A stretch of DNA of 64,000 nt from positions 110,792 through 174,791 of the forward strand of contig JBKDXR010000058.1 of NCBI GenBank assembly GCA_046306055.1, written 5' to 3'. The notes below the pieces were generated by a model. It worked only from the letters and a program-made list of their open reading frames with translations. It made no database searches and had not been told where the DNA came from. The position numbers were made by a program, and so were the translations under genes. This DNA is from Flavobacteriales bacterium. Lineage in GTDB: Bacteria > Bacteroidota > Bacteroidia > Flavobacteriales_F > PHOS-HE28. Below, piece after piece: positions 3,367 through 40,687 of the stretch (the stretch's first letter is position 1; the number at the start of each line of letters is the position of its first letter).

Positions 3367-4998
3367 TCACCGCTTCTCCAGCTCCAGCACGATGGCCAGT
3401 GCGTTGCCGCCGCTGCTGCTCGCCCCGATGGTGGTGCCGTCCGTGAAGTGCACGTCGGTGGATAGCTCATCACCGAGCACCTCGCTGAGCTTGGCCGCGA
3501 GGCCCACGGCCTTGCTGGCAAGCAGGCGTTCATTCAGCTTCGGATAGTCGAAGGGCTGGTTGGTGACCAGCACGGCCATTACATCACGTTGTCCTTCATC
3601 ATCGGCCATCAGGCTGTGGTCGCTGGGGAAGATGCGGGTGCCGGTGATGCCACAGTAGGGCGAATGTTTCGGGGTGTAGGGGAAGAGCACATAGGTGCTT
3701 CCGTCGGCCTCCTGCCCGAACACATACGTATAGCACTCGGCGTTGTTGGTCACCTCGATCTTGAACTTCGCGCCTTTGGCGACCGTGGTGGTGCTCCGGA
3801 ACACATTGCCTCCGGTATTCCTCAAGGGAATGTTCTTCTTGGTGGCGTTGTCCACGAAGCCGAAGCGGATATCGAATCGGGTGGGTTTCACGTCCACGCC
3901 TTCACCCTGCGGATAAACGGCATAGGCCTCTTTGGCGAAATGGTCGAATACGGGGTAGGGTACCCAGGCCATGCCGTTCTTCCCCCATTCGGGACCCCAA
4001 CTGTTCATGATGAGGAAGCCGCCGGAATCGCCGAACTTGAAGTCATCATAGCCCACCACGCACATGGCATGTCCGCCGAAGCCCCGTTGGGCGTAGTCCT
4101 GTTCGTTGGGCAGCCAGGCATCGCGGCCTTCCATGGCCTGCATGAAGGAGCCGCCCACCATCATGCCAATGACGATGGGAGAGCCCTGGGCCAGGTGCTG
4201 TTTCATGGCCACCATATCGGTGCGCTGCTCGTTCGCCCCCAGCGTGAGGCGTTGGAATCCCTTGATGCGGTAGGGCAGGGCCTGCTTGCGTTCATCGGCA
4301 TTGGGCAGTTTGTCGCAGCGCTGGTCGGTGTAGGCGAATTGGCTGAAGGGGAGGGCGCCGCCTTTCAGCATCTGCTCCATGGCGCGATAGATGTAGGATC
4401 CCTGGCAGTCGCTGCCATCGATCTTGATCTGGTTGTACATGAAGGCCGGGCTGAAGGCGATCTTCTGCTTATGAATTACACCTTCTTGGAAATCAGCGAC
4501 TGAAGAGTCTCGTCCATCTATTGATTCGAAACTGCCTTCTTCAATAATGTCCATCGCCTTGTTGTAAACGATGGTGCGCGCTGCGTAAGCACTGGCCCAC
4601 GCCACGCAGCTTCCCTGCTGGCCCTGGTTGAGACGGGGCGGACAATACTGCTCCAATGTGATCCGCTCGGGCAGCGGGTTCTTCACGTTGTCCGCCAAGG
4701 GTTCGTATACCTCGGCCTGGTCGTAGAGCGCCGGGTCGAAGTTGGCGCCGGTGCTGAAGTTGGCCAGTTGGGAAAGCATATCCCCACCTCCGCTGTTGCG
4801 ACCCACGAAGAACCACCATAGCCCGCCAAGGACCAGCACCAGGAGCAGGAGCTTGGGCTTCTTGATGAGCAGGCCGATGATCATGGGCAACAGCCGTCCC
4901 AAGCCCCCACCCATGCTGCCACCTCCAGCGGAGCGACGTGGTGTGGGCGCACTACGCCGGCTTCCACCGGGCTCGTCGGGTACCATACGAATGGCCAT
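3367..4998 (-). CDS. Membrane-anchored papain-family (C1) cysteine peptidase with C-terminal beta-rich domain (DUF4384-like)
   Basis: N-terminal cytoplasmic Gly/Arg-rich tail plus a TM segment (LLPMIIGLLIKKPKLLLLVLVLGGLWWFFV). Catalytic motifs QGSCVAWASAY (Cys), GGHAMCVVGYDD (His), NSWGPEWGKNG (Asn-Ser-Trp). Confidence 0.7.
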   Translation of the reverse strand: MAIRMVPDEPGGSRRSAPTPRRSAGGGSMGGGLGRLLPMIIGLLIKKPKLLLLVLVLGGLWWFFVGRNSGGGDMLSQLANFSTGANFDPALYDQAEVYEPLADNVKNPLPERITLEQYCPPRLNQGQQGSCVAWASAYAARTIVYNKAMDIIEEGSFESIDGRDSSVADFQEGVIHKQKIAFSPAFMYNQIKIDGSDCQGSYIYRAMEQMLKGGALPFSQFAYTDQRCDKLPNADERKQALPYRIKGFQRLTLGANEQRTDMVAMKQHLAQGSPIVIGMMVGGSFMQAMEGRDAWLPNEQDYAQRGFGGHAMCVVGYDDFKFGDSGGFLIMNSWGPEWGKNGMAWVPYPVFDHFAKEAYAVYPQGEGVDVKPTRFDIRFGFVDNATKKNIPLRNTGGNVFRSTTTVAKGAKFKIEVTNNAECYTYVFGQEADGSTYVLFPYTPKHSPYCGITGTRIFPSDHSLMADDEGQRDVMAVLVTNQPFDYPKLNERLLASKAVGLAAKLSEVLGDELSTDVHFTDGTTIGASSSGGNALAIVLELEKR

Positions 4999-5043
4999 GT
5001 ACCGTTGTATTTGGGAAGGTTGTAGGTGAACGGTCCGTGCGTA

Positions 5044-5397
5044 TCAGCCCCGCGGCCTGAACGGTTCCTTGCCGGTGAGCAGGTCCCAGAAGAGCAGGAA
5101 GTCACTGGCAAGGCTATATGCCGGATATTGGAAGGTGGCGGGCTTGTTGCGTTCAAAGAAGTAATGTCCCACCCACGCGAAACCGTAGCCGGCCAATGGG
5201 ATCATCACCAACCAGAGCGCGTTCCGGGTGACCAGGGCCAGTGAGCACCACACCACGATAAGCCCCGTACCGATGAAATGGAGCACGCGACAGACCGGGT
5301 CCTGGTGCTCACTGAGGTAGTAGGGGTAGAACGTCCTCAACGATCGGAAGCGCTCGGGGGGACTGTCCGTTGTCATGGTCCGGGTGATGATGCGCAC
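5044..5397 (-). CDS. DUF962 (Mpo1/YGL010w-like) small membrane protein
   Basis: FYPYYLSEHQDPVCRVLHFIGTGLIVV...GHYFFERNKP pattern typical of DUF962. The true start may be the internal Met at residue 8. Confidence 0.55.
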   Translation of the reverse strand: MRIITRTMTTDSPPERFRSLRTFYPYYLSEHQDPVCRVLHFIGTGLIVVWCSLALVTRNALWLVMIPLAGYGFAWVGHYFFERNKPATFQYPAYSLASDFLLFWDLLTGKEPFRPRG

Positions 5398-5425
5398 CTA
5401 ATTTAGGCCAATAACCCACTGAGCC

Positions 5426-5782
5426 ATGAACCTCCTTCTCGCCCTTGTGACCGCATTGGTCCTGCCTCTGCAGGCCTTCACCGTTCCCGTGTTGCCGGAG
5501 GCCCCTGCCAATTCCGACATTGCGGTGGTACTTCATATCGAAGGCCTGGATGATGCCATGCTTGCCCGATTGGCCAAGCAGATCGGCCGTGATAAGAACA
5601 CCACCATCGAGTATTCCTGCGTGTCCTCTGGTGTGGTGGTACTGCGGTTCACGGACGCGCCGGTGAACGAGCGTGCCGATGTCATCACCATGGTCCGCAG
5701 GCAGCTTACGGCCGCGGGGATCGAGCAGGGCGTGGAGTTCCTGCACATTCATATCGAGGCCAAGGGTCCGGGCAAGTGTTGA
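5426..5782 (+). CDS. Hypothetical small secreted protein
   Basis: 118 aa, N-terminal signal peptide MNLLLALVTALVLPLQA. No recognisable domain. Confidence 0.45.
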   Translation: MNLLLALVTALVLPLQAFTVPVLPEAPANSDIAVVLHIEGLDDAMLARLAKQIGRDKNTTIEYSCVSSGVVVLRFTDAPVNERADVITMVRRQLTAAGIEQGVEFLHIHIEAKGPGKC

Positions 5783-5832
5783 CCGGAACGGGGCGTGCTG
5801 GGGCGTTCGCTCCCGATACCTTTGTGCTCCGC

Positions 5833-7419
5833 ATGCAGCCGCACTGTGTCCCTTACGCCGCCACGCACCGTTTCTCCCCGTTGGTGCTGGACTACCTGGC
5901 GGATGGTGAGCGTACACGGGAGTTCCACGCTGGCCGGCCCGATCTGGCCGGTCTGGTGAAAGCCGCTTCCCAGCGGCAGTTCGACCCGGCCGCTCGCGAG
6001 GCGCTTGTGCGCGTTCTGCGGTCCCAATATGATGGCCTTCCGGCGGAAACAGCGGTGGAGCAGAGCCTTCGAGATCTCGCCAGGCCGGATGCGTTAACGG
6101 TCACCACCGGCCACCAATTGGTGCTGTTCGGCGGACCGTTATATGTGCCGTTCAAGCTGCTCAATACCGTTCGCGTGGCACGTGAACTGCAGGCTGCCAC
6201 GGGCCGTCCGGTAGTTCCGGTGTTCTGGATGGCCACCGAGGACCACGACCGTGCCGAGGTCGATCATACCTACTTCAATGACCATATGCTGCAATGGCCC
6301 GGCCAGGCAGGTGGTGCGGTCGGTCGTATGCCCCTGCATGGCATAGGACCCGCGGTGGAGGAGGCCATTGCGCACCTTGGCGAAGGAGCGCATGCCCTTG
6401 AAATGGCTTCGCTTCTCCGGGAACACTACCGGCCCGAGCGGACCTTGGCAGAGGCCACACGCGGCTTTGTGCATGCGCTCTTCGGTCGCTTCGGCATCCT
6501 GGTCCTGGATGCGGATGCACCTGAGCTGAAGCGCTTGTTCGCACCGGTGGTGAAGGAGGAGTTGCTGAACCAGGTCGCGGAAAGAAGCGTCTCCTTTGCC
6601 AATGCCCGGTTATCGGAACAGTTCACCGTGCAGGCCCATGCCCGCGAGATCAACCTCTTCCACCTTCGGCCAGGTCATCGCTCACGCATCGTGCTGGATG
6701 GGGATGCCTTCCGTGTACTGGACGGCGGTCCTTCGTTCACCCTGGACGAACTGCTGGCCGAGGTGGACGCCCATCCCGAGCGCTTCTCTCCGAACGTGCT
6801 GCTCCGTCCGGTATACCAGGAGGTGGTACTGCCCAATGTGGCTTATGTGGGCGGAGGTGGTGAGCTGGCCTACTGGCTGCAACTGAAATGGATCTTCCAG
6901 GCGCTGCAGGTCCCCATGCCACGTGTGTTGCTGCGGACCAGTGCAGGATTCATCAGCACGAAGCGCTTGCACCAATGGCAGGCCTTGGGGCTGGCCACCG
7001 AGGACCTCTTTACTGATCAGTCACCCCTGATGGCCCGCGTGGCCACTGACCTTTCCACGTTCAGCACGGACCTGGCCGGTGAACGGGAGCGGTTGACCGC
7101 GTTTTATGATGGCCTGTTGGCCAAGGCCAGTGCGGCCGACCCGACCCTGCGAGGCGCCGTGGAAGCACGTCGGGCCAGTGCACTGAAAGGGGTGGACCGC
7201 CTTGAGCAAAGCATGGTGCGCGCCGCCAAGCGTCAGCAGGCAACGGCCATGGACCGGATGCGCAGCGCCCATGCAGAGCTGTTCCCCGGTGGCGGTCTGC
7301 AGGAACGTCGGGCCAATATCCTGCCCATGCTGGCCGCGCGTGGCGTTGGGTTCCTGGACGAGCTCTTGGAACGCCTCGATCCCTTGAGCCCCTGCTTCAC
7401 CCTCTTCGAGGAGGCCTGA
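5833..7419 (+). CDS. bshC: Bacillithiol biosynthesis cysteine-adding enzyme BshC (putative)
   Basis: 528 aa from the Met at residue 20 of ORF 5776..7419. N-terminal LVLDYL...; Rossmann-like TTGHQLVLFGGPLYVPFKLLNTV...WMATEDHD signature and a C-terminal coiled-coil, as in BshC (YllA family). Confidence 0.65.
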   Translation: MQPHCVPYAATHRFSPLVLDYLADGERTREFHAGRPDLAGLVKAASQRQFDPAAREALVRVLRSQYDGLPAETAVEQSLRDLARPDALTVTTGHQLVLFGGPLYVPFKLLNTVRVARELQAATGRPVVPVFWMATEDHDRAEVDHTYFNDHMLQWPGQAGGAVGRMPLHGIGPAVEEAIAHLGEGAHALEMASLLREHYRPERTLAEATRGFVHALFGRFGILVLDADAPELKRLFAPVVKEELLNQVAERSVSFANARLSEQFTVQAHAREINLFHLRPGHRSRIVLDGDAFRVLDGGPSFTLDELLAEVDAHPERFSPNVLLRPVYQEVVLPNVAYVGGGGELAYWLQLKWIFQALQVPMPRVLLRTSAGFISTKRLHQWQALGLATEDLFTDQSPLMARVATDLSTFSTDLAGERERLTAFYDGLLAKASAADPTLRGAVEARRASALKGVDRLEQSMVRAAKRQQATAMDRMRSAHAELFPGGGLQERRANILPMLAARGVGFLDELLERLDPLSPCFTLFEEA

Positions 7420-7452
7420 TCCGCTGTTCGTTCCCGCTCCCGACAGGGCTGC

Positions 7453-7460
7453 TACTTTTG
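7453..7460 (+). promoter_or_regulatory. Bacteroidota-type -7 promoter box TACTTTTG ~26 nt upstream of the guaA GTG start
   Basis: Matches TAnnTTTG. Supports the Bacteroidota assignment. Confidence 0.4.
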
Positions 7461-7485
7461 AGGCGTCATCGGATCATCTGTACCG

Positions 7486-9033
7486 GTGGCTACCCATCCC
7501 GTGGCCGGTTCCATCCTTATTCTCGATCATGGCTCCCAGTACACCCAGCTCATTGCCAGGCGTGTTCGTGAGCTGAACGTGTATTGCGAGATCCATCCCT
7601 TCAGCAAGGCCCAGCAGTTCGTTGGCGATCCCACCGTCAAGGGCGTCATCCTGAGCGGTAGTCCCAGCAGTGTGCACGATGTCAATGCGCCTGATACCGA
7701 CCTTACGGGTATCATGGGACGGGTGCCCGTGCTCGGTGTTTGCTACGGTGCCCAGCTCTTGGCCAAACGCGCCGGCGCTCCGGTTGAACGTTCCACGGTG
7801 CGGGAATACGGCCGCGCCCACCTCACCACCATTGGCGACAGCCACCTGTTCGACGGCATCCAGGCCGGCACACAGGTGTGGATGAGCCACGGCGACAGCA
7901 TCACCGCGCCCAGCGAGGCCATGGATGTGATCGCCAGTACCAAGGACGTGCCCGTGGCCGCCTACCGGCTGCGCGATCACATGACCTTTGCCGTACAGTT
8001 CCATCCCGAGGTCTACCACACCACGGACGGGCTGCAATTGCTGCACAACTTCGTGATCGGCATTTGTGGCTGTGAAGGTGACTGGACCCCGCACGCCTTC
8101 GTTGAGCACACCGTGGAGCGTCTGCAACAACAGCTCGGGCAGGACCAGGTGGTGCTGGCCTTGAGCGGGGGAGTGGATAGTTCCGTTGCCGCCCTGCTTC
8201 TGGACCGCGCGATCGGCGACCGTCTCCATTGCATCTTCGTGGACAACGGTCTGTTGCGCAAGGATGAGTACACCCGTGTGCTGGAGAGCTATCGCCACCT
8301 GGGCCTCAACATCACCGGGGTGGATGCCAAAGCGGAGTTCTATGCGGCCCTGACGGGATTGGAGGAGCCCGAGGCCAAGCGCAAGGCCATCGGCCGGACC
8401 TTCATCGAGGTGTTCGACCGGGAGGCGCACCGCATCAAGGACGTGAAGTGGCTGGGCCAGGGCACCATCTACCCCGATGTGATCGAGAGCGTGAGCGTGA
8501 ACGGCCCCAGCGTCACCATCAAAAGCCATCACAACGTAGGCGGGCTTCCGGACCGCATGAAGCTTCAAGTGGTTGAGCCTCTGCGCCTGCTCTTCAAGGA
8601 CGAAGTGCGACGGGTGGGCCGCGAGATGGGCCTCGATCCCAACATCCTGGGCCGTCACCCTTTCCCCGGACCGGGCCTGGCCATCCGTATCCTCGGTGAG
8701 ATCACCCAAGAAAAAGTGGCCCTGCTCCAGGAGGTGGATCACATCTTCATCCAAGGTCTCCGGGACGAAGGGCTCTACGACCAGGTCTGGCAGGCCGGCG
8801 CCATCCTGCTTCCCGTGCGCAGCGTGGGGGTCATGGGCGACGAACGGACCTACGAGAACGCCGTGGCCCTGCGTGCAGTGACCAGCACCGATGGCATGAC
8901 GGCCGACTGGTGTCACCTGCCGTACGAGTTCCTGGCACGGATCTCGAACAGCATCATCAACCGGGTGCGCGGCGTGAACCGAGTGGTGTACGATATCAGC
9001 TCCAAGCCCCCGGCCACCATCGAATGGGAATGA
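7486..9033 (+). CDS. guaA: GMP synthase (glutamine-hydrolysing)
   Basis: GTG start. GATase-1 domain ([30 protein letters not shown]), an ATP-PPase SGGVDSSV motif, and a C-terminal dimerisation domain ending ...PPATIEWE. Confidence 0.95.
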
Positions 9034-10799
9034 CCATCCGTTTTCCCTTGGTCCTGGCCCTGATGCTGTGGACCATGCTCTCCTTCGCACAGGGAACGCG
9101 CACCATCGACGGTCGCACCTACACGGTGCATCGTGTGGAGGCGGGCCAAACGCTTTACGCCATAGCACGTTCTTACGCTGTTCCGGTGGATGCGCTTCTG
9201 GCCGCCAATCCTACTGCAAGCGCCGGTCTGGCCATCGGGCAGGAACTACTTGTACCCAGGGATGCGGTGGTGAAGAAGGAGGTGAAGGCCGCGCCCACCA
9301 TGGCCAAGGACGGCGAACTGGTGCATACGGTGGCGAAGAAGGAGACCCTGTTCGGGATCGCCCGCAACTATGGTATGGACGTGAACGTGTTGTTGGAGCG
9401 CAACCCCGATGCCCAGGCCGGATTGCGTGAAGGAATGACCATTGTGGTGCCCGTGGCGGGCAAGGTGCAGGGTCAGCCTGATGTTGTTACCCGGCCCGCC
9501 GTGCCAGAGACCGTTGTGGAGCACACGGTGAAACAGGGCGAGACCCTGTACGCGCTGGGTCAATTGTATGGCGTGGCACCAGAGGCCATTCAGAAAGCGA
9601 ATGGTGGATTACCCGAAGGGTTGAAGGCGGGAGCCGCAGTGCGTATTCCGTTGCCCCCCGGCGCCAAGGCTCCGGAGGTGCCTGTGGCCACAGTGCCGAA
9701 AGCCAGCGATCGGGTCACGGTGGCCTATCTGCTTCCCTTTGCCTTGACGCGTAATGACAGCGTGCTGGCCGTGCCTTCCGATGAACCACGGTTCTATGAG
9801 GCCACGCGCATTGCCACGCAGTTCTGGGCCGGCGCACGTATCGCATTGGATTCCCTGCAACGCCTTGGCGTCAACGCCGAGGTGCGGGTGGTGGACATGG
9901 GTGACGATGCCCGCACATGGAACGCGGCCCTGAAAAAGCCTGAACTGAGCGGCGCTGACCTGTTCATCGGGCCCTTCCATCGGACGGCCATTGAACAGCT
10001 GGCCCGCACCACCAGTGTGCCCATCGTGTGCCCGGTCCCACAAAGCAACAAGGTGATCCTTGGTCACCCCACGGTGAGCAAGGTGACCCCCACCCGAAGC
10101 GATCTGGTCCGGCACAGTGGCCGATTCGTGGGAACGCGATTCGCTCGCGAGAACATCATCTTGTTGAGCCCCGACCTTTCAGCGGAGAAGGAGATGCAAG
10201 AGCAGATGGCCAGGGCCGTGCGCGATGCCCTCGCGGGTCAGTCGGCCCGGTTGCGGGACAGTGCCGTTGTGGCCAAGCCCGGTCGTCGTGAACTGGGTGA
10301 CCTGGTATCCAAGCTGGATGTTAATCGCCTGAACGTGCTGTTGGCCCCTGGTGAGGACGTGGAATACGTGACCACCCTGGTCAGCAAGCTGAAACCGCTG
10401 GCCACCAAGTACAAGATCATGCTCGTGGGGCTGGAGTCGTGGCAGACCATGGAGACCGTTGCCACCACCGACCTGGAACTGCTGGGCTTCCATTTCGCTG
10501 CGGCCTCTTTCGCCGATCCGGACGATGCCTCACTGCAGGCCTTCACACGCACCTTCCGCGAGCGCTATCACAATGATGTGGACGAGTATGCCCTGCTCGG
10601 GTTCGATGTGACCATGGCCTATGTGAAGGCACTGAGCGAAGTTGGTGCTGTTGGGCTCATGGAACGCATGAGCAATGCTGGAAAGACCCCGCTCCACATG
10701 GGCTTTCGCATGACGCGGACAGGCCCTGAGAACGGCTACCGGAACGAGTACGCCGTGATGTTGAAGCAGGAGGACCTGCGCCTCGTCAGGGCAAGGTAG
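9030..10799 (+). CDS. LysM-repeat protein fused to a periplasmic-binding-protein-like domain
   Basis: ATG overlaps the guaA stop (ATGA). Signal peptide [21 protein letters not shown]. Three LysM repeats ([18 protein letters not shown]..., [20 protein letters not shown]..., [19 protein letters not shown]...), followed by a type-I PBP-like region. Confidence 0.8.
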
Positions 10800-11907: not shown

Positions 11908-12067
11908 GCTGGGCGTTTGCTAGCCCCGATGGTGGTCTGGGAATGGAACGGGAACGGATGTTCCCCACCTACGGTCTGGAGGATCTGCAGGTACGAGTCT
12001 AAATCGTGATCGTCCACTGCGGCGGTACAAAGGTAGGCCATGCGTTAAGCAAGGTCCGAAGGGCGAA

Positions 12068-12886
12068 CTATTCCTTTGCGGTTGCAAGGGAGCGCGGGGC
12101 ATCGGTCTGGAGCCTGTCCGGGCCTTTCAACAAGGCCTCACGATGGTCCCACCAGCCCTCCACTCCGAACAATGTGACCTTCAGTCCTTGGGCGTGGGCC
12201 GCTGCCACCTGTTCCGAGGTTATACGGGCATTGTCCATGGTCAATCCCGCGCAGCCAAGGGATCGTGCACGGATCATGCCTTCCGAGGCCTCGTTGGCAT
12301 AGAGGTATAGCGGGAGCGAAGGGGCCTTGCTGCGCAACATGCCGAGGAACTCATCGATCTGGCATTCCACAATAAGCCGTCCGTACAGGTCGGGATGTTC
12401 ATGGAGGGCCTTCAGGGCACTGCTGAAATGGTCGAGATAGGTCATCCAATCCCCTTCGGCGAAGAGCTTGATATCCAGGGTGAGGTCCGCAGCGGGGAAC
12501 GATGCAGCAAGGGCTGGTAACAAACTGTCCAGCCGGGCGATCGGATAGGCACGTTCGCCCTCGGCCGTATTGGGGCACCGACGCAGTTCCTCCCAGCGTT
12601 TGGCGTTCACTTTGCCTTCACAGGGCGTCAGATCGTTCAATTGGGCCGGGTGATAGGCCACCAACACATCATCGGCGGTCATTTGTACATCGAGCTCCAC
12701 GCCATCGATCCCCAATGCAAGCCCGGCCTCCAAGGCCTCCCGGGTGTTCATGGGGTGCTCGCCTTCCGGACCCGATCCGCCGTGTCCAATGATCTGCACG
12801 GAACCGGCCTCGGGTAGTGAACATCCGGACAGGCCCAGTGCCAAGGTGAGCAGGAAGGAGGGCAGCGTTGAACGGAGGGCGCGCAT
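12068..12886 (-). CDS. Glycerophosphodiester phosphodiesterase family lipoprotein
   Basis: Lipobox LALGLSGCS; GDPD motifs IIGHGGSG...EHPMNTREA...ELDVQMTADDVLVAYHP. Confidence 0.75.
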   Translation of the reverse strand: MRALRSTLPSFLLTLALGLSGCSLPEAGSVQIIGHGGSGPEGEHPMNTREALEAGLALGIDGVELDVQMTADDVLVAYHPAQLNDLTPCEGKVNAKRWEELRRCPNTAEGERAYPIARLDSLLPALAASFPAADLTLDIKLFAEGDWMTYLDHFSSALKALHEHPDLYGRLIVECQIDEFLGMLRSKAPSLPLYLYANEASEGMIRARSLGCAGLTMDNARITSEQVAAAHAQGLKVTLFGVEGWWDHREALLKGPDRLQTDAPRSLATAKE

Positions 12887-12929
12887 GGCGGTGCGGCCAC
12901 AGAGATACGCAACCCCGGTCATCCGCGCA

Positions 12930-13583
12930 TCAGCGTTCCACCACGGTGGTCAGCAGCGGGCAATCATAGAGTGCACCGGGCGATATCATGAGCTCATCCA
13001 GGGGTGGGGTACTTCCATACCGAGCACGCATCAACTCCTGCACGGGCGGTGAGCCCAGGTCGTGCTCGCGCATGGGGCGGGGCGCACAAAGCTCAATGCC
13101 CGGGCCTTCCTTGTACATCTTCCAGACCAGTTCAGAGCAGTAGATGCGCTCATCGCTCCAGTTGAACTGCAGGTCGTAGGGAAGGCCTTTGAAGCGAGCG
13201 CCGGCGGTCCTGAGCTGGGCAAGCTCTTCCTTGGTCAATGTGCGGTCCTTGGTCCCCCAGCGTTTGGCGGTCCAATGGTGGTCGGTGCCTCGTTCGATCC
13301 ACTCCTTAAGTGGCTCATATTGCACAGGTCCCACGGCCTCGTATACCATCCAGTGGCCGTTCAGTTTAAAAAGGACCCCCACATGGGTCCAAGGGGAACC
13401 GGTTGCCAGCCGAACCGCACGCCCTTGTTCACCGCCGGTCTGCTGGAAGAGGATGTCCCCTTCGCGAAGCAGGTCCGTATAGGAGGTGGGACCGGTTGCC
13501 GCCCAGGGTGTTTCGCTTTGCAACCCCAGTAGCACCGATGCCGTGATCAGTGCACCGGCCAGCAGAAAGGTCCTTGATCGCAT
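12930..13583 (-). CDS. YiiX/DUF830-like permuted papain-fold (NlpC/P60 superfamily) protein, secreted
   Basis: Signal peptide. GDILFQQT...SPWTHVGV...IYCSELVWKMY arrangement typical of the permuted-papain YiiX family. Confidence 0.55.
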   Translation of the reverse strand: MRSRTFLLAGALITASVLLGLQSETPWAATGPTSYTDLLREGDILFQQTGGEQGRAVRLATGSPWTHVGVLFKLNGHWMVYEAVGPVQYEPLKEWIERGTDHHWTAKRWGTKDRTLTKEELAQLRTAGARFKGLPYDLQFNWSDERIYCSELVWKMYKEGPGIELCAPRPMREHDLGSPPVQELMRARYGSTPPLDELMISPGALYDCPLLTTVVER

Positions 13584-35709: not shown

Positions 35710-36423
35710 TCACGGTGTGGACCCGGCGCAATGCCGGGTCCATGCGTTCCGGGCCTCTTCGTGGCGCTGGATGGCCGCTTGCTCCAGGTCGCTGCAGCCC
35801 TCTGCATTGCGCCCATGGCGCAGCAGCAGGATGCCCCGTTCGTAAAGGCAGTTGCCCACCTCGAAGCCCTGTTCAATACAGACGCTTAGCCAGTCGTAGG
35901 CTTTCACCGTGCTGTCCAGTTCCAGATAGCTCAGGGCGAACGCATACCCAACGTGCTTGTAGGGGACATCGAACTCGGGTGGTTCAATTCCCATGCCTGC
36001 GTTGCCGGTCATCTCCATGAACACGTGCGCGTTGCCGGGGGCGTTCTCGTCCCACCCAGGGCTCTTCAAGCGCATTAAGGTCTCCAGGTCGTTCACGGCC
36101 CCCGCGTGGTCGCCCAGCCGCCCCTTGGCCAGGGCCCGGTTGAACAAGGCGGTCTGGTTCTCCGGGTCCAAGGCCAGTACCGTATCATCATCTGCACGGG
36201 CTCCCGCATGGTCGCCCAAGTGGGAGCGGAGCACCCCGCGCTCAATGCGTGCCCACAAGTGCTTTCCGTCCTTGCGCACTGCTTCGTTCAGGTGGAACAA
36301 GGCCGAGTCGCTCTGTCCCGCCGCCTCCAGCTCACTGGCGATGCGCAGGTGGTCATCCGTCGTGCGCACCTGGCAACCCCACCAGACCAGCGCGAGCAGT
36401 GTGATGGCCCATGTGTGCCTCAT
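35710..36423 (-). CDS. TPR-repeat secreted protein
   Basis: Signal peptide; four or five TPR units. The last 8 codons are supplied by a palindromic repeat element (see repeat 35719..35741). Confidence 0.7.
   Translation of the reverse strand: MRHTWAITLLALVWWGCQVRTTDDHLRIASELEAAGQSDSALFHLNEAVRKDGKHLWARIERGVLRSHLGDHAGARADDDTVLALDPENQTALFNRALAKGRLGDHAGAVNDLETLMRLKSPGWDENAPGNAHVFMEMTGNAGMGIEPPEFDVPYKHVGYAFALSYLELDSTVKAYDWLSVCIEQGFEVGNCLYERGILLLRHGRNAEGCSDLEQAAIQRHEEARNAWTRHCAGSTP
35719..35741. repeat. Palindromic repeat GGACCCGGCGCAATGCCGGGTCC (copy 2). It is embedded in, and supplies, the last 8 codons of the TPR gene 35710..36423
   Basis: Same stem as copy 1. One loop substitution. Confidence 0.55.
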
Positions 36424-37232
36424 GGCAGACCGATCTCCGGCTTCGTCGCCACCAGCCCGTACACCATGGGCAGTTTGCCTTCCATGCCCTTTATCCGGTA
36501 CAGCCCGTCCGGGCCCTGAACCGTGTTCGCGAAGGAGTCGTGCGGCGAGCTGTCCAGTTCCGTGAACCGGTCAATGCGCAATCCCGCCTCCAGCAGGACC
36601 GTCAGCACTTCGCCCAAGCCGTGGTTCCAGCCGTAGGAGGTGAGCCGGATCGGCGCGTTGCGGTCCGCGTAGGTGCCTTGTTCCTCTTCCACAATGGTCT
36701 CCCGGTTGAAGTAGGAGTAGGCCACATGCGTGAAGTCGTTGTCGAACATCCACACTGCCGGGTGGAACTCCACGAACACCAGGCTTCCGCCCGGCCGCAG
36801 ATAGCGCGCGATGTTCGCTGCCCACGGACGCAGGTCGGGTAACCACCCGATGGTGCCGTAGCTGGTGAATACGATGTCCGATCCTCCGTCCAGTTCCGGG
36901 CGATGGTCCACCACGTTGCTTTCCACCCACTGTGCCGTGATCCCGCAGCGTTCGGCCAGCTTGCGGGCCTCGGCCAATGCAGCGTCCGAAATGTCCAGAC
37001 CGGTCACTCGGGCGCCCATGCGTGCCAGGCTCAGCGTGTCCTGTCCGAAGTGGCATTGCAGGTGCAGGATGTCCTTTCCGGTCACATCGCCCAGCAGTTC
37101 CCGTTCGATCGCCGTCAGGGAGCTGCGCCCCGCCACGAAACCCTCCACATCGTACATCCGTGAGGTGAGGTGATGCGGCACCCGGGCGTTCCAGAGGGCC
37201 CGGTTGGCGGCGAATTGGTCATGGTAGGACAT
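36420..37232 (-). CDS. Class I SAM-dependent methyltransferase
   Basis: DILHLQCHFGQDTLSLARMGARVTGLDIS (motif I) and LRPGGSLVFVEFHP. Confidence 0.75.
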   Translation of the reverse strand: MSYHDQFAANRALWNARVPHHLTSRMYDVEGFVAGRSSLTAIERELLGDVTGKDILHLQCHFGQDTLSLARMGARVTGLDISDAALAEARKLAERCGITAQWVESNVVDHRPELDGGSDIVFTSYGTIGWLPDLRPWAANIARYLRPGGSLVFVEFHPAVWMFDNDFTHVAYSYFNRETIVEEEQGTYADRNAPIRLTSYGWNHGLGEVLTVLLEAGLRIDRFTELDSSPHDSFANTVQGPDGLYRIKGMEGKLPMVYGLVATKPEIGLP

Positions 37233-37306
37233 GGAGCGAAGCTAATGGCACACACCGTTCACCCCTCGAGCGCAATGGAGCGTACGCCACCGTTCATCTT
37301 TGTTCC

Positions 37307-38134
37307 ATGAAGCCCGTGCCCGCCCTGTTCGCTGTTCTTCTGGTGGCCTGTTCCGAGACGCCTGCACCCGAGCAGGCGCTGGTCCCTGCAGCTGGCCACA
37401 CCTTGCGCGATGACCTGGCCCACCTCTTCGCCGACCGCCAGTTGCAAGGCTCCTTTATCGGCTACGACGCCCAGCAGGAGCACTGGTCCTTCATCGACAG
37501 TGCCAGCTGCGATGTGGCCACTCTTCCGGCCAGTACCTTCAAGATCATCGGCAGCCTCCTCGGGCTGGAGAGCGGCGTATTGCCCGATACCGGCCACGTG
37601 ATCAAGTGGGATGGGCAGGACTACGGCCGCGCTGCCGCCAACCGCGACCTCAGCTTGCGCCAGGCCTACGATGTGAGCGCCTACTGGTACTTCCGCGATG
37701 TGGTGCGCCGTATCGGTCCGGCAGGCTTCAAGCAATGGCTCGATACCGTGGGCTATGGCAATGCCGACACCACCGGCGGTTTCGACCAGTGCTGGGTACG
37801 GGGAGGGCTGCGCATCACCCCGCGCCAGCAGATCGAATTCCTGCGCAAGCTTCACGCCGAGGAACTGCCCTTCAGTGCCCGCACCTTCGCCCTCACTAAG
37901 GACATCATGGTGCGCGAGGACACCCTTGGTCACGTGTTGCGCGCCAAGACCGGTTGGGCCCAGGGCGATGAAGGAAGCATCGGCTGGTACGTGGGCTGGG
38001 CCGAAGCGCCGGGCCGGGCGCCCTACTTCTTCGCCACCCGCATTTCCACCAGCGATACCGCCCACGCCTCCTTTGGCAACGATCGCATCGCCATCACCAG
38101 GTCGGTGCTGCGCGAAGCGGGGGTGTGGCCTTAG
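37307..38134 (+). CDS. Class D (OXA-type) beta-lactamase
   Basis: Signal peptide. Active-site S-T-F-K (LPASTFKIIGSL), S-x-V (DVSAYW), Y-G-N (TVGYGNADT) and K-T-G (LRAKTGWAQG) elements in canonical order and spacing. Confidence 0.85.
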   Translation: MKPVPALFAVLLVACSETPAPEQALVPAAGHTLRDDLAHLFADRQLQGSFIGYDAQQEHWSFIDSASCDVATLPASTFKIIGSLLGLESGVLPDTGHVIKWDGQDYGRAAANRDLSLRQAYDVSAYWYFRDVVRRIGPAGFKQWLDTVGYGNADTTGGFDQCWVRGGLRITPRQQIEFLRKLHAEELPFSARTFALTKDIMVREDTLGHVLRAKTGWAQGDEGSIGWYVGWAEAPGRAPYFFATRISTSDTAHASFGNDRIAITRSVLREAGVWP

Positions 38135-38296
38135 AGCCTGTTTGGGATCTCCGCATTTGGCTCCGCTATGGTCTTTGGCGACCATACTTCGTTGCGGAAG
38201 CCGTCACGTAGCTTCGGCTATGCTCCGGTTCCGCGCCTCGTCTGGTCGCCAGATCCTCATCGCTCGCTTCAAAAGGAGAGATCCCAAACAGGCTCT
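38133..38296. mobile_element. MITE-like element: 19-bp perfect terminal inverted repeats (AGAGCCTGTTTGGGATCTC) flanking a ~125-nt structured core
   Basis: The left arm starts 1 nt inside the bla stop codon (38133-38151). The right arm is at 38278-38296 and is the exact reverse complement; the match extends to ~24 bp with 2 mismatches. The core contains nested palindromes (GGCGACCA/TGGTCGCC; GCGGAAGCCG/CGGTTCCGC). Confidence 0.35.
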
Positions 38297-38710
38297 TAGG
38301 AGATGCCCGGCGTCTTAAACTTCCGCAACAGGTCCAGGAAACCCAGCACCACCAACGCCACGGCGGCGCCAAGGAGCGTATCGTACAGCCTGCCGCTCAT
38401 GGTGCTCGCAGATTCCGGCTCCTGGCCGAAGGTGGCCAGCGTCTGGGCCCATGGGCGTTCCGATGGCCAATGCCGCTCGCAGTCCGGCACCCCAGCGCCA
38501 TTCACCTTGTTGCAGGCGCATGGCGTGGTGTACCGTGCGTCGGGTGCGGGGTATGCGCAAGCGGGGTCGCATGGGGGCGCGAAGTTGGGGTGCGTGGCCG
38601 CTTGGGTCCGTCGATCATCGCCCCCGTTCGGACGATAAGGGCGGCCTTACTGCCGAAGTTCACGAACAACGCCACCCGGCCCCCGTAACCACCACCAAAC
38701 CCCTGCACCC

Positions 38711-39220
38711 ATGAACCAGCACAAGCTCCCCACCCGTTCGGCCGCGATGTTGGTTGCATGTATCGCTCTATGCTCCACGGCCATGGCCAAGGCCCCGGCA
38801 AGCGCCGACCAGGAGTCCGTGGTACTTACGGGTTGGCAGCACGTAGAGGACCACAGCTTTAGTGGTGCCACCGTTGCCGTAAAGGTGAACGGCGCCATTC
38901 GCGATGCCGTGGTGTCCGAGACCGGGCGCTTCACTGTTACGCTGCCCGCCGGAACCAAGGCCCTGCTGCGCTTCGAGATGCCCGGCCACCTGACCAAGGA
39001 AGTGGTGGTGGATACCCACTTCGCCACGTTGGGCGATCCCGGTCAGCGGGTGCGCCGTGTTCGCTTCGCCGTTGTACTGGAACTGGAACGCCACATGGCC
39101 GGTTTCCGCTATCTAGGCCCTGTGGGCTCCATTGGCTTCGATCAGGGAGGCGGCTGCCTCGCCATAGCCCGAGATCGCAAGCTGGTACCCGCCAGGCGCC
39201 AGGCCACCATGGTGTTCTGA
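38711..39220 (+). CDS. Hypothetical secreted protein with CarboxypepD_reg-like N-domain
   Basis: Signal peptide. The N-domain is paralogous to the N-domain of 55894..57105 (FEMPGHLTKEVVVD vs FEKPGFVAKKLSFN; FAVVLELERHMAGFRYLGPVGSIGFD vs FEFAVSLFKQYDDINIVVFNQPVGVIRYESGLGDFD). Confidence 0.5.
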   Translation: MNQHKLPTRSAAMLVACIALCSTAMAKAPASADQESVVLTGWQHVEDHSFSGATVAVKVNGAIRDAVVSETGRFTVTLPAGTKALLRFEMPGHLTKEVVVDTHFATLGDPGQRVRRVRFAVVLELERHMAGFRYLGPVGSIGFDQGGGCLAIARDRKLVPARRQATMVF

Positions 39221-39321
39221 GCATTCTGGTGGATAGCCCTTCAAGCGCAAGGCCCCTGTGGACAGGTTGTTCCGCAGGGGCTTTGTGTAATGGGCCTTGT
39301 CCACAGATTATCTTCGGAGTA

Positions 39322-40494
39322 ATGGTCGCCTTTCAGTTCCGATGGTTCACATGCCTGTTCTTGCTGATGACGGTGTTGCCCAGCGCGGCACAGACCACGC
39401 CTGCCACCGTGGTGTATGGCAAGGTGCGCCAGGTCTCTGTGGCACACAACGGTTCCATTTGGCTCACCACGAGCACGGGTAACATTTACCATACTGCATC
39501 GGTGGATTCCTTTTGGCAAAAGGGCCTGCAGACCAACCCCGTGTCGGACTACTCCGGGCTTTCCACCAGTTTCGATCGTATCCTTTTCTTCTCCAGCGAC
39601 ACGGCCGTGCTGTTCGGCAATATCCGCTGCGGTTCCGATACTTATGAGCGCAACTGCATCCGCCGCACCGCCGATGGTGGCCGTAGCTGGTTCGTGGTGC
39701 GGTTCGGCAAGGAAGGGGCCTGGGTGCGCCACGGACAGCTGCTTGCCGGTGGCGTGGGCTACATCTCCGCATCCAACGGACGCATCTACCGCACCTCCGA
39801 TCACGGGGATACGTGGGTGACGCTGCCGAACATCTTCGGAAAGGAGCGCGAGGCCTATTACCGTGCGCCCGACCTCTGGTCGTTCCACTTCGCCGATACA
39901 AGCACGGCGATCGCCACCAACCGAAGCAACCATCTGGCCATCACCATCAATGGCTTCGCCTCCGCGCAGCGCATTGCCACACCGCTGGATCAAGGCCTGT
40001 TCCAGCGCGTGTACAAGCCCTACTACCTCAACGGCAAGGGCCGGAAATACGTGGACAATTGGAATATTGACAAGGTCCGGATCTTCGGCGATCACCTGTT
40101 GGTCCTCCAGAACGGACGCATGTACCATACGCGGCGCGATGTCATTGCCTGGAAAGCCGGTTCTGCTGATGTGCTCGACTTTGAGGTGGATGACGCATCG
40201 GGCAGGCTTTTCGCCATTACCGCTGACCAAGGGGTGGGGGAGTTCGCTGCTGATCTGAGCTTCACTTCCTGGGGACAGGTGAACACGGGGGTGCGGCCGC
40301 TGAACATCAGGGTGCAGCGCGATGTGGTATACCTTCTTTACGCTACTTACCTGGACGAGGTGGGCACCGATGTGGTGCGCGAACATGTGGCCGGTCTCGC
40401 AGTCACTGAGAAGAACCACAAGCGCGTTGGCGGCTACCATGTGTTCCGTGCCACACCGGAAGAGATCCGCTACACGACCGTGAGATCTCATTAG
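39322..40494 (+). CDS. BNR-repeat (Ycf48/sortilin-like) beta-propeller secreted protein
   Basis: Signal peptide MVAFQFRWFTCLFLLMTVLPSAAQ. BNR motifs TADGGRSW and TSDHGDTW. Confidence 0.6.
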   Translation: MVAFQFRWFTCLFLLMTVLPSAAQTTPATVVYGKVRQVSVAHNGSIWLTTSTGNIYHTASVDSFWQKGLQTNPVSDYSGLSTSFDRILFFSSDTAVLFGNIRCGSDTYERNCIRRTADGGRSWFVVRFGKEGAWVRHGQLLAGGVGYISASNGRIYRTSDHGDTWVTLPNIFGKEREAYYRAPDLWSFHFADTSTAIATNRSNHLAITINGFASAQRIATPLDQGLFQRVYKPYYLNGKGRKYVDNWNIDKVRIFGDHLLVLQNGRMYHTRRDVIAWKAGSADVLDFEVDDASGRLFAITADQGVGEFAADLSFTSWGQVNTGVRPLNIRVQRDVVYLLYATYLDEVGTDVVREHVAGLAVTEKNHKRVGGYHVFRATPEEIRYTTVRSH

Positions 40495-40519
40495 GTCCAG
40501 CAGCACGGTCGCTACGTGC

Positions 40520-40687
40520 TCAGCGGCTGTACACCTGCCCGCTCCCCAGGTCCGTAACGCTGGCACGCCGTCCTTCCACCACCACGAACAGTCGCGGCAC
40601 GAAGTTCCTGGCAACGCCAATGGGGTAGGCCTTGAAGATATCGTCGTGCCGCTCCTGGTCCACGCACACCAGCGAGCGCAAAGTCAT
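40520..40687 (-). CDS. Small hypothetical protein (55 aa), below the ORF-track size cutoff
   Basis: ATG...TGA reading MTLRSLVCVDQERHDDIFKAYPIGVARNFVPRLFVVVEGRRASVTDLGSGQVYSR, with GC3-rich codon usage like neighbouring genes. Confidence 0.3.
   Translation of the reverse strand: MTLRSLVCVDQERHDDIFKAYPIGVARNFVPRLFVVVEGRRASVTDLGSGQVYSR

Follow-up and report, generated by a model that had tools for sequence, protein, structure and literature searches.

The protein described here is most closely related to the class D (OXA-type) beta-lactamases, for which seven DBL motifs have been listed (PMC11785024). The valine of motif II is often swapped for another hydrophobic residue in class D enzymes (PMC9045261), and in OXA-48 the residues Val120 and Leu158 gate the access of water to the carbamylated lysine (PMC9097296). 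Domains of class D type, homologous to that of the protein described here, are also present in the pseudo-DBLs YbxI/BSD-1 and BAC-1 and in the sensors BlaR1 and MecR1. Among mobile elements, the IS1031- and IS427-type groups of the IS5 family generate 3-bp TNA duplications and have ends beginning GAG or GGC, a length of about 0.85–0.95 kb, and an orfA-orfB frameshift.

We analyzed a 64-kb stretch of Flavobacteriales DNA (the window) in which a gene for a class D homologue is followed by a spacer of 576 nt (38135–38710). We consider it highly probable that this gene encodes a class D-family lipoprotein and that the spacer is composed of a MITE, a deleted FUSC_2 gene, and a native intergenic region (Table 1). 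The locus is interesting in detail and ordinary in kind. In the literature on Flavobacteriales and on class D lipoproteins, our searches turned up no directly relevant characterized enzyme of this clade.

Table 1. Features of the class D locus and its downstream spacer (window coordinates)
Feature	Position	Strand	Basis
Class I SAM-dependent methyltransferase gene, divergent from OXA-like gene	36420–37232	-	Syntenic in relatives
Class D (OXA-type) beta-lactamase-family lipoprotein gene, 275 aa	37307–38134	+	ORF, HMM, PDB matches, AF2 model
Lipobox L-V-A-C (aa 12–15), candidate lipidation site Cys15	37340–37351	+	Sequence; homologues
PASTFK motif (aa 74–79)	37526–37543	+	Aligned with OXA-48 S70/K73
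P-loop R108-A-A-A111, in place of FxxW	37628–37639	+	Alignment to OXA-48
Motif II, S124-A-Y126	37676–37684	+	HMMER alignments to 6nhs, 6n1n, BSU-2
Y150-G-N motif (aa 150–152)	37754–37762	+	Nearly invariant in 119 homologues
Omega-loop C162-W163-V164, in place of F-W-L	37790–37798	+	Alignment to OXA-48
K214-T-G-W motif (aa 214–217)	37946–37957	+	Invariant or nearly so in 119 homologues
Left TTA target-site duplication	38131–38133		Sequence; L066 empty site
MITE, 162 nt	38134–38295		TIRs, hairpin fold, multi-copy, empty sites
Right TTA target-site duplication	38296–38298		Minus-strand TAA stop of FUSC_2 remnant
FUSC_2 3' remnant, last ~48 codons including last hydrophobic helix	38296–38448	-	blastn, BLASTP versus L007
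FUSC_2 5' remnant, start codon and 42 native codons	38446–38572	-	blastn, BLASTP versus L007
Native divergent intergenic region, former FUSC_2 gene to next gene, 138 nt	38573–38710		L007 alignment
169-aa secreted protein gene	38711–39220	+	Syntenic in relatives

Family Placement and Inheritance of the Class D Homologue

The product of the OXA-like gene has the class D fold and is homologous to class D beta-lactamases, as the initial annotation had proposed. It matches the NCBIfam model bla_class_D_main (NF012161) with an E-value of 5e-60, PF00905 is its sole Pfam match, and a phmmer search of the PDB returned 6nhs as the best match (E = 3e-50), with OXA-48 and OXA-10 also matched. Its AF2 model has a pLDDT of 93.1, with low values for residues 1–30; a Foldseek search with this model placed an OXA-48-like enzyme at the top (TM 0.95, rmsd 1.6 Å), and the best 50 neighbors are all class D beta-lactamases with TM values of 0.9–0.95.

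The NF012161 score of 202.7 bits lies below the curated whole-protein cut-off of 250 bits, as do those of all six members of its clade that we scored (195–214 bits). Among the named families in NCBIfam the best score was obtained with OXA-1206 (172.3 bits versus a cut-off of 420), none of the remaining named OXA families exceeding 168 bits (cut-offs of at least 400), and the protein is placed by these scores outside every named OXA family. It is found in identical form in at least 161 assembly blocks. Public names for such proteins conflict, "class D beta-lactamase" being used in some cases and "penicillin-binding transpeptidase domain-containing protein" in others. For resistome surveys, the clade represents a large, vertically inherited class D branch just under the curated HMM thresholds.

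The GC content of the OXA-like gene equals that of its flanks, the methyltransferase and OXA-like genes keep their arrangement in relatives with an 80–85% identical protein, and those homologues with a named source are Flavobacteriales MAG proteins. These observations point to vertical inheritance in an uncultured, high-GC Flavobacteriales lineage and agree with the earlier view of a chromosomal class D gene in environmental Bacteroidota. Some related MAGs carry isolate names that presumably point to wastewater plants.

Active-Site Motifs and the Clade Signature

The signal peptide noted earlier is present and is of the lipoprotein type (LLVAC). The cysteine at position 15 is at least 90% conserved in the homologue alignment, a lipobox-like motif occurs in 80 of 119 homologues, and Cys15 is followed by a Pro/Ala-rich tether extending to about residue 33. 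The protein is predicted to be lipidated at Cys15.

Motifs were compared among the same 119 homologues, consisting of 102 clade members (at least 46% identity) and 17 canonical relatives. Within PASTFK all 119 keep the P, A, S, and K, and Thr77 and Phe78 show conservative changes only (T/S and F/Y/W, respectively); Ser76 is presumed to be the catalytic residue and Lys79 the carbamylated general base. In the homologue alignments S70, K73, S118, W157, YGN, KTG, and R250 (OXA-48 numbering) are invariant or nearly so, and the omega-loop tryptophan that stabilizes the carboxylated lysine (W154 of OXA-10, W157 of OXA-48) corresponds to the invariant Trp163. The initial annotation had credited the protein with all class D active-site elements. 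This holds for STFK, YGN, and KTGW and is too strong for the whole, because motif II reads S-A-Y where SxV was claimed, Ala stands in place of W105, and C-W-V takes the place of FWL; the protein departs from three of the seven listed motifs.

At motif II, HMMER alignments match S124-A-Y126 with STV in 6nhs, SAL in 6n1n, and SAI in BSU-2. The serine is invariant among the 119 homologues, and the third residue is Tyr in 95, Phe in 7, and Val in 17. The string SGV occurs once in the protein (aa 89–91), off the motif II position. The S-x-V pattern fails by letter, and its chemistry may hold: at position 126 an aromatic or hydrophobic role seems likelier than a polar role, since Phe alternates with Tyr among the homologues.

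The position of OXA-48 Trp105 is occupied by Ala111 in the window protein and by V, I, or A in 97 of 102 clade members, none of which has W, whereas all 17 of the nearest canonical relatives do; Arg108, in the same loop, is invariant throughout the clade (102/102). Around the omega-loop tryptophan, the F156 position is C, A, or T in every clade member (102/102) and F in 17/17 of the outgroup, and the L158 position is V in 91/102 and L in 17/17, respectively. A remodeled signature (W105 to V/I/A, V120 to Y/F, F156 to C/A/T, and mostly L158 to V) is thus common to all 102 relatives, the clade comprising at least 102 cluster representatives with 46–100% identity to the window protein.

The encoded protein would be a periplasm-facing, lipid-anchored serine enzyme of class D fold. 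By analogy with the class D mechanism, a beta-lactam would acylate Ser76, and Lys79, which is presumably N-carbamylated and kept in place by Trp163, would act as general base in both acylation and deacylation, with the substrate bound by Ser124, Lys214-Thr-Gly, and Arg260. We infer both the carbamylation of the lysine and the hydrolysis of beta-lactams. The clade appears to have re-packed the shell around the catalytic lysine and the substrate, a change that may set it apart from characterized OXAs in activity and spectrum. Given the role of Val120 and Leu158 in controlling how water reaches the carbamylated lysine of OXA-48, Tyr at the Val120 position could alter or impair turnover. With its correlated changes at the residues that gate water to the lysine, the clade offers a natural experiment in class D catalysis.

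The same changes could instead mark a pseudo-DBL like Bacillus YbxI/BSD-1 and BAC-1, that is, a protein with negligible beta-lactamase activity that does something else in the periplasm, for instance as a penicillin-binding protein of low activity or in a function related to peptidoglycan. We regard this as possible, though doubtful. The whole clade falls under the NCBIfam equivalog cut-off, W105 is lost, V120 is replaced by Y or F, and F156 and L158 are both changed; a linked regulator or resistance context is absent, and conserved motifs are insufficient for activity, as in YbxI and BAC-1 (PMC9045261). Set against this are the invariance or near-invariance of S70, K73, S118, W157, KTG, and R250 and the titles of the OXA-1206, OXA-1089, and OXA-1091 families as carbapenem- or oxacillin-hydrolyzing. 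In addition, the substitutions look volume-compensating, a ring being gained at 120 and ring or bulk lost at 105, 156, and 158, suggesting a maintained pocket.

A more specific proposal, which we consider speculative and rather unlikely, is that the clade forms a functionally distinct class D subfamily in which the replacements and Arg108 provide an unusual means of stabilizing or gating the catalytic lysine. The hydroxyl of Tyr126 might, for example, hydrogen-bond the carbamate. If true, this could mean a substrate or inhibitor profile unlike that of all characterized OXAs, in a lipoprotein-displayed enzyme of abundant uncultured Flavobacteriales.

Composition of the Downstream Spacer

The long gap after the OXA-like gene, described earlier as 577 nt of noncoding sequence, is real and measures 576 nt, but its genuinely noncoding character is not borne out: it consists of a MITE, two FUSC_2 remnants, and native intergenic DNA, and is not a regulatory spacer. 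The native portion has the same length and is alignable in the related locus L007 (7878–8015). Six independent assemblies match over 1404 nt with at most one mismatch.

The inverted repeat noted in this gap is also real, its arms (38129–38159 and 38270–38300) being 87% complementary with a perfect 18-nt core. The core forms the terminal inverted repeats (TIRs) of the MITE (GAGCCTGTTTGGGATCTC, at 38134–38151 and 38278–38295), and the element folds as one whole-length hairpin (-91.8 kcal/mol, z = -7.35). The stop codon of the OXA-like gene (TAG, 38132–38134) is composed of the TA of the left TTA duplication and the first G of the MITE. The orthologous sites in L007, L008, and L066 lack the element, and the empty site of L066 reads GGCC-TTA-ATTGG, with one TTA only. 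The earlier observation that mobile-element genes are absent stands with respect to transposase genes, but the inverted repeat is itself a mobile element.

The MITE belongs to a dispersed family. Its TIR was found at 89 loci (55 genome and 34 metagenome), several per MAG; copies are mostly 161–162-nt paired elements in Flavobacteriales MAGs, approximately 50 paired copies span 160–186 nt, and TTA, TAA, TCA, or TGA pairs within CTNAG flank most of the copies listed. The window copy represents a rarer subfamily, internally 50–61% identical to the common 161-nt type, and matches an element at a different site in L064 with 99% identity. It is the only copy in the 64-kb window, with none upstream of the OXA-like gene, and blastn with it found no match in PLSDB plasmids. 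A subfamily-specific 22-mer had no matches in metagenome contigs; since this 22-mer is present in L001–L006, the metagenome collection is evidently without samples of this organism. A TIR-like site at 9344 (three mismatches) was rejected as a chance match with no partner arm, and L036, considered as a full-length IS, has a single arm, ordinary neighbor genes, and no transposase and was reclassified as a solo or decayed end.

Neither the 64-kb window nor this organism's contigs yielded an autonomous IS. An unrelated metagenome contig (L093) does carry a 919-bp IS whose left TIR is the same as that of the MITE and whose right TIR has three mismatches, with TTA and TAA flanks; it encodes orfA (PF13340, DUF4096; 4e-16) and orfB (PF01609, DDE_Tnp_1; 8e-27) with an A8 slippery run. 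The MITE would be of IS5-family type, mobilized in trans by a DUF4096 plus DDE_Tnp_1 transposase recognizing the 18-nt ends. Since members of this family insert at C-TNA-G and begin with G, insertions often fall on stop codons and re-create them.

The remainder of the spacer is best understood by comparison with L007, where an intact 350-aa FUSC_2 protein (PF13515, 5e-22) is encoded by a gene whose stop codon overlaps that of the OXA gene, as is also the case in L008; in L066 the FUSC_2 gene call spans a run of N. The 3' remnant in the window matches L007 6843–6977 at 87% by blastn and residues 299–345 of the L007 protein at 81% identity by BLASTP (E = 4e-22), and the 5' remnant aligns from L007 7751 onward and with residues 1–49 (84%, E = 3e-24). 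The two are joined out of frame, and the deletion relative to L007 amounts to 776 nt (1053 - 277), which is no multiple of 3. Pfam searches with both window fragments gave no match. By this comparison the FUSC_2 gene of the window is evidently a pseudogene. In the ancestral state a convergent gene for a 350-aa FUSC_2 membrane protein would have ended against the OXA gene, the stop codons of the two overlapping. The MITE would have entered the C-TTA-G created by that overlap, duplicating the TTA and preserving both stop codons, and the internal deletion of ~776 bp would have destroyed the FUSC_2 gene and left its ends out of frame. Any order assigned to the MITE insertion and the FUSC_2 deletion would be inferential.

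A 34-aa hydrophobic micro-ORF had been proposed at 38299–38400. The frame exists, as part of a minus-strand open frame ending at 38296 (69 aa from GTG, 34 aa from an internal ATG), but it lies within the 3' remnant, and its ATG corresponds to an internal Met of the L007 protein. It is the last helix of the dead FUSC_2 gene. That the spacer instead holds its own functional small hydrophobic peptide (34 or 69 aa), or a regulatory RNA or terminator evolved for the OXA gene, seems to us very unlikely. An open frame with a hydrophobic helix is indeed present, and a very stable hairpin begins at 38134, the final nucleotide of the OXA stop codon; as a by-product, this hairpin could stall read-through or stabilize the 3' end of the mRNA. 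The frame, however, is collinear with the C-terminus of the intact 350-aa gene and 81% identical to it, the native FUSC_2 start now reads into another frame, and the hairpin belongs, target duplications included, to a dispersed family and is missing at the orthologous sites. A scan of 36000–40000 against Rfam (E <= 1) gave no match, and no T-tract was found after the stem. Scans with consensus sequences unsuited to Bacteroidota gave no sigma-70 promoter-like sites, and the two terminator-like sites that they did find are weak and have no relation to the hairpin.

The abutment of the MITE on the OXA-like stop codon might suggest a recently acquired resistance gene in a mobile unit moved by an IS5-type element, a reading we consider extremely improbable given the single MITE in the window, the matching GC content, the presence of the gene between the same neighbors without a MITE in relatives (80–85% protein identity), and homologues that grade from 100% to 46% identity with Flavobacteriales MAG proteins as those of named source. 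Nothing here points to a mobilized or clinically imminent resistance gene. For genome annotation, the locus illustrates how an inverted repeat and a micro-ORF in a long spacer can be resolved, by way of an intact relative, into a MITE and a deletion pseudogene.

Comparison with Known Systems

We considered and rejected the readings that the protein is a BlaR-type sensor, that the gene was carried by a composite transposon, that the spacer encodes a genuine small membrane protein, and that the hairpin is a regulatory element that evolved in situ. The first of these, in which the protein would be a BlaR1/MecR1-type beta-lactam sensor domain and no hydrolase, is essentially refuted by protein architecture, and we give it almost no credence. 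The generic BlaR1 model does score 152.8 bits over its sensor part, and the third residue of motif II is non-canonical, the Tyr having a polar OH (PMC9045261). BlaR1, however, is a protein of ~585 aa with a membrane-protease part, whereas the window protein has 275 aa, a lipoprotein signal, and neither the four-helix membrane domain nor the M56 zinc protease; positions 347–584 alone of the BlaR1 model were matched, against a cut-off of 400 bits, and the class D model scores higher (202.7 bits). Phe replaces Tyr in seven homologues, a blaI- or blaZ-like partner is absent nearby, and BlaR/MecR proteins are absent from the best 50 structural neighbors. The possibility raised by the initial annotation that the protein might group with non-hydrolytic BlaR/PBP-like class D homologues is not borne out by these comparisons.

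The window MITE resembles IS5-family-derived MITEs in its 18-nt TIR starting with GAG, its TNA duplication within CTNAG, its whole-length hairpin, its multiple copies, and its empty sites in relatives. Among FUSC_2/YccS-type inner-membrane proteins (fusaric acid resistance-like, aromatic acid exporter), the PF13515 domain is present in the intact L007 orthologue, whereas the window copy keeps the first 42 and last ~48 codons, with ~776 bp gone and the frame broken.

With OXA-48-like and other class D enzymes the window protein shares its fold (TM 0.93–0.95, rmsd 1.6 Å), PASTFK, S118, YGN, W157, KTG, GWxxGW, R250, a similar length, and secretion, at an identity to the solved structures of merely 33–39%. 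The closest of these by sequence is 6NHS, "class D YbxI from Nostoc" (39%), BSU-2/YbxI is the top PDB match over the segment from motif II to YGN, and the best-scoring named NCBIfam families are OXA-1206, OXA-1089, and OXA-1091. YbxI and BSU-2 keep the canonical S-A-I, W105, and FWL, positions at which the window protein differs. Relative to OXA-48-like enzymes, it has lost the FxxW tryptophan, has SxY for SxV and CWV for FWL, and, unlike the class D enzymes compared, carries a predicted lipoprotein anchor.

The OXA-like protein and its lineage

The OXA-like gene is predicted, from its sequence and modelled fold, to represent a member or clade of the class D beta-lactamase type that is new and uncharacterised. 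PF00905 is its sole Pfam domain, and its top NCBIfam match is the generic class D model NF012161 (5e-60, 202.7 bits, below the curated cut-off of 250). The named OXA families are all far off (the closest, OXA-1206, scores 172 bits vs. a cut-off of 420), and a BlaR1 model match is confined to the sensor part (152.8 bits). Among solved structures, 6nhs is nearest in sequence (3e-50), ahead of other class D enzymes, OXA-48, OXA-2, and OXA-10 among them. An AlphaFold2 model built with 54 homologues as input was confident (mean pLDDT 93.1, pTM 0.87); all of its top 50 Foldseek PDB neighbours are class D beta-lactamases, with OXA-48-like structures overlaying it at TM 0.93–0.95, an rmsd of 1.6 Å, and 33–39% identity. 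The N-terminus (MKPVPALFAVLLVAC, followed by SETPAPE) contains a lipobox, the Cys of which shows conservation of at least 90% among the aligned homologues; a lipobox with a Pro/Ala-rich tether after it is a recurring feature of the family.

At least 161 assembly blocks contain the identical protein, and six independent contigs (from ENA and JGI) match the window gene and spacer with at most one mismatch in 1,404 nt. Relatives, where named, appear as "MAG: class D beta-lactamase [Flavobacteriales bacterium]" or [quoted passage not shown] The gene is chromosomal and vertically inherited, because its GC content (approximately 0.63–0.64) equals that of its flanks, the methyltransferase–OXA order is kept in relatives with an 80–85% identical protein, the identity of relatives declines gradually from 85% to 46%, and the adjoining T9SS-tail (Por_Secre_tail) and DUF3575 genes are in keeping with Bacteroidota. 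No sign of mobilisation of the gene was found: a miniature transposable element (MITE) occurs just once in the 64 kb and nowhere on the gene's upstream side, and relatives retain the locus in synteny. In its core, the initial annotation (an OXA-like class D gene on the chromosome, its product bearing a signal peptide) holds.

Gene content just downstream varies at strain level. A JGI contig encoding the identical OXA protein (L002) has a minus-strand Peptidase_M43 gene (PF05572, 9e-10) at 11987–13123, where the window (39229–40494) and other contigs have a plus-strand ORF of 390/421 aa with weak Sortilin/Tectonin-like matches only. Long frames are open on both strands of window positions 39229–40620 (421 aa plus, 459 aa minus); the 459-aa frame, which has no Pfam match, is probably a shadow ORF of high-GC DNA.

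A decayed gene and a mobile element in the spacer

In two relatives with an 80% identical OXA protein (L007 and L008), the position of the spacer is occupied by a convergent gene of membrane-transporter type, FUSC_2 (PF13515; 350 aa in L007, called at 334 aa in L008), whose stop codon overlaps that of the OXA gene. A third relative (L066, 85% identical) shares this arrangement, but its FUSC_2 gene call spans a run of N. The window keeps only the two ends of this gene, 277 nt vs. 1,053 nt in L007, with a blastn junction at 38446–38448; approximately 776 nt are missing, a length not divisible by three, and the surviving parts sit in different frames. A 34-aa hydrophobic micro-ORF suggested earlier for the spacer is not a gene of its own: it is the last hydrophobic helix of the dead FUSC_2 gene, with an ATG that corresponds to an internal Met of FUSC_2. 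No new noncoding functions are needed to explain the long spacer in full.

Features of the OXA-like locus and of the related insertion sequence
Feature	Position	Strand	Description
OXA-like class D gene	37307-38134	+	ORF, 275 aa
Spacer 3' of OXA-like gene	38135-38710		576 nt
MITE	38134-38295		162 nt, bounded by inverted-repeat arms
FUSC_2 3' remnant	38296-38448	-	...LATFGQE..STMSGRLYDTLLGAAVALVVLGFLDLLRKFK; 81% identical to L007 residues 299-345, E 4e-22
FUSC_2 5' remnant	38446-38572	-	MRPRLRIPRTRRTVHH...GTPMG; 84% identical to L007 residues 1-49, E 3e-24
Native divergent intergenic region	38573-38710		138 nt; equal length in L007, alignable
L093 element	L093:114-1032		919 bp; left end = 18-nt end of window MITE

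In L067, another relative with an 80% identical OXA protein, FUSC_2 is wholly absent (4911–8721), and what lies downstream of the OXA gene is an MmeI-type restriction-modification gene together with a 188-aa ORF; DNA 3' of the OXA gene is thus a hotspot of change in the lineage.

The initial annotation saw no mobile-element genes here but missed a mobile element, the inverted repeat being a MITE. Its arms (38129–38159 and 38270–38300) share a perfect 18-nt core, GAGCCTGTTTGGGATCTC, and it folds as a single long hairpin (−91.8 kcal/mol, z = −7.35). TTA flanks it on each side, and the orthologous site in L066, GGCC-TTA-ATTGG, has a single TTA and no element; the MITE is also absent from the L007 site. 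The target was the C-TTA-G made by the overlapping OXA and FUSC_2 stop codons. With G as its first base, the element left both stops intact: that of the OXA gene consists of TA plus this G, and the FUSC_2 remnant stops at the TAA complementing the right TTA.

The MITE family and its IS5-type relative

The 18-nt terminal inverted repeat (TIR) was found at 55 loci in a scan of one genome per species, more than half of them in Flavobacteriales MAGs and with single genomes often contributing several, and at 34 further loci in a metagenome scan. About 50 pairings are copies, mostly of 161–162 nt, and those listed are mostly bounded by matching TTA, TAA, TCA, or TGA within C-TNA-G. One 99%-identical copy (L064) occupies an unrelated site, contains an internal insertion of 20 nt, and has a TAA duplication. 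The metagenomic L093 element encodes a DUF4096 orfA (PF13340, 4e-16) and a DDE_Tnp_1 orfB (PF01609, 8e-27) and is flanked by TTA and TAA, with no identical duplication. An A8 run between the two frames suggests programmed frameshifting. These features are those of IS5-family insertion sequences, and the window element is a putative non-autonomous derivative of one.

At 25 of 51 pairings (49 elements; loci L011–L101), the stop of an open frame of 80 or more codons coincides with the TNA duplication or is formed by TA and the G that starts the element, vs. 20% (86/422) of CTNAG sites taken from these loci as controls; frames end on both sides, as with the convergent genes of the window, in five of the 51 vs. 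0.9% of controls. The family thus tends to sit exactly on stop codons, these being raw counts in which high GC inflates spurious open frames.

Beyond Bacteroidota, the TIR occurs in L054, in a Dyella MAG (L059:6491–6647, a 157-nt paired copy with a TGA duplication), and in a gammaproteobacterial MAG (L030:4492–4757, a 266-nt paired element with unequal flanks, TCA and TAA). A solo end in Dyella (L012:5135–5152) is followed after 18 nt by a FUSC/FUSC_2 gene encoding 694 aa (Pfam 7e-27), probably by coincidence. At L013:6698–6728 the left end, GAGCCTGTTTGGGATCTCTTCAAACAGGCTC, directly joins the right end as a 31-nt hairpin, a collapsed mini-copy that suggests internal deletion of an element.

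Active-site motifs

PMC11785024 lists seven motifs of class D beta-lactamases. Motif residues were compared in an alignment of 119 homologues with OXA-48, whose reference sequence was verified against 3hbr (265/265 residues covered, 602.7 bits). P74, A75, S76, and K79 (PASTFK), S124, W163, and R260 (OXA-48 R250 by alignment) are invariant in all 119, and Y150-G-N and K214-T-G nearly so. GWxxGW reads G226-W-Y-V-G-W in the window protein. In the clade of 102 homologues at least 46% identical to it, W227 and G230 are invariant, G226 and W231 nearly so, and Arg108 is invariant (102/102). The claim that all active-site elements are present was overstated: PASTFK, YGN, and KTG stand, and SxV (motif II) reads S124-A-Y126.

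The third residue of motif II is Y in 95 and F in seven of the 102. The clade also lacks W at the OXA-48 W105 position of the FxxW motif (V/I/A/L/T; W in 0/102) and F at the F156 position (C/A/T; F in 0/102), and has V at the L158 position in 91/102. The 17 homologues at most 45% identical are canonical at all positions where the clade deviates, with V in motif II in 17/17. Val120 and Leu158 of OXA-48 form a "deacylating water channel" controlling hydration of carboxylated Lys73 (PMC9097296). Because the ring gained at position 120 accompanies loss of bulk at 105, 156, and 158, the changes look like compensatory re-packing, and the alternation of Tyr with Phe argues for a hydrophobic role of this residue. 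The Tyr/Val/Cys/Ala combination of the window protein may alter lysine carboxylation and substrate spectrum. No position varies more than the motif II Val, for which another hydrophobic residue often stands, and BlaR sensors have a polar residue in its place; intact motifs do not guarantee activity (PMC9045261). In solved class D proteins the third residue is V, I, or L (STV in 6nhs, SAL in 6n1n, SAI in BSU-2/YbxI, SVI in BAT-2, and SVV in OXA-48), whereas in the window protein it is Y.
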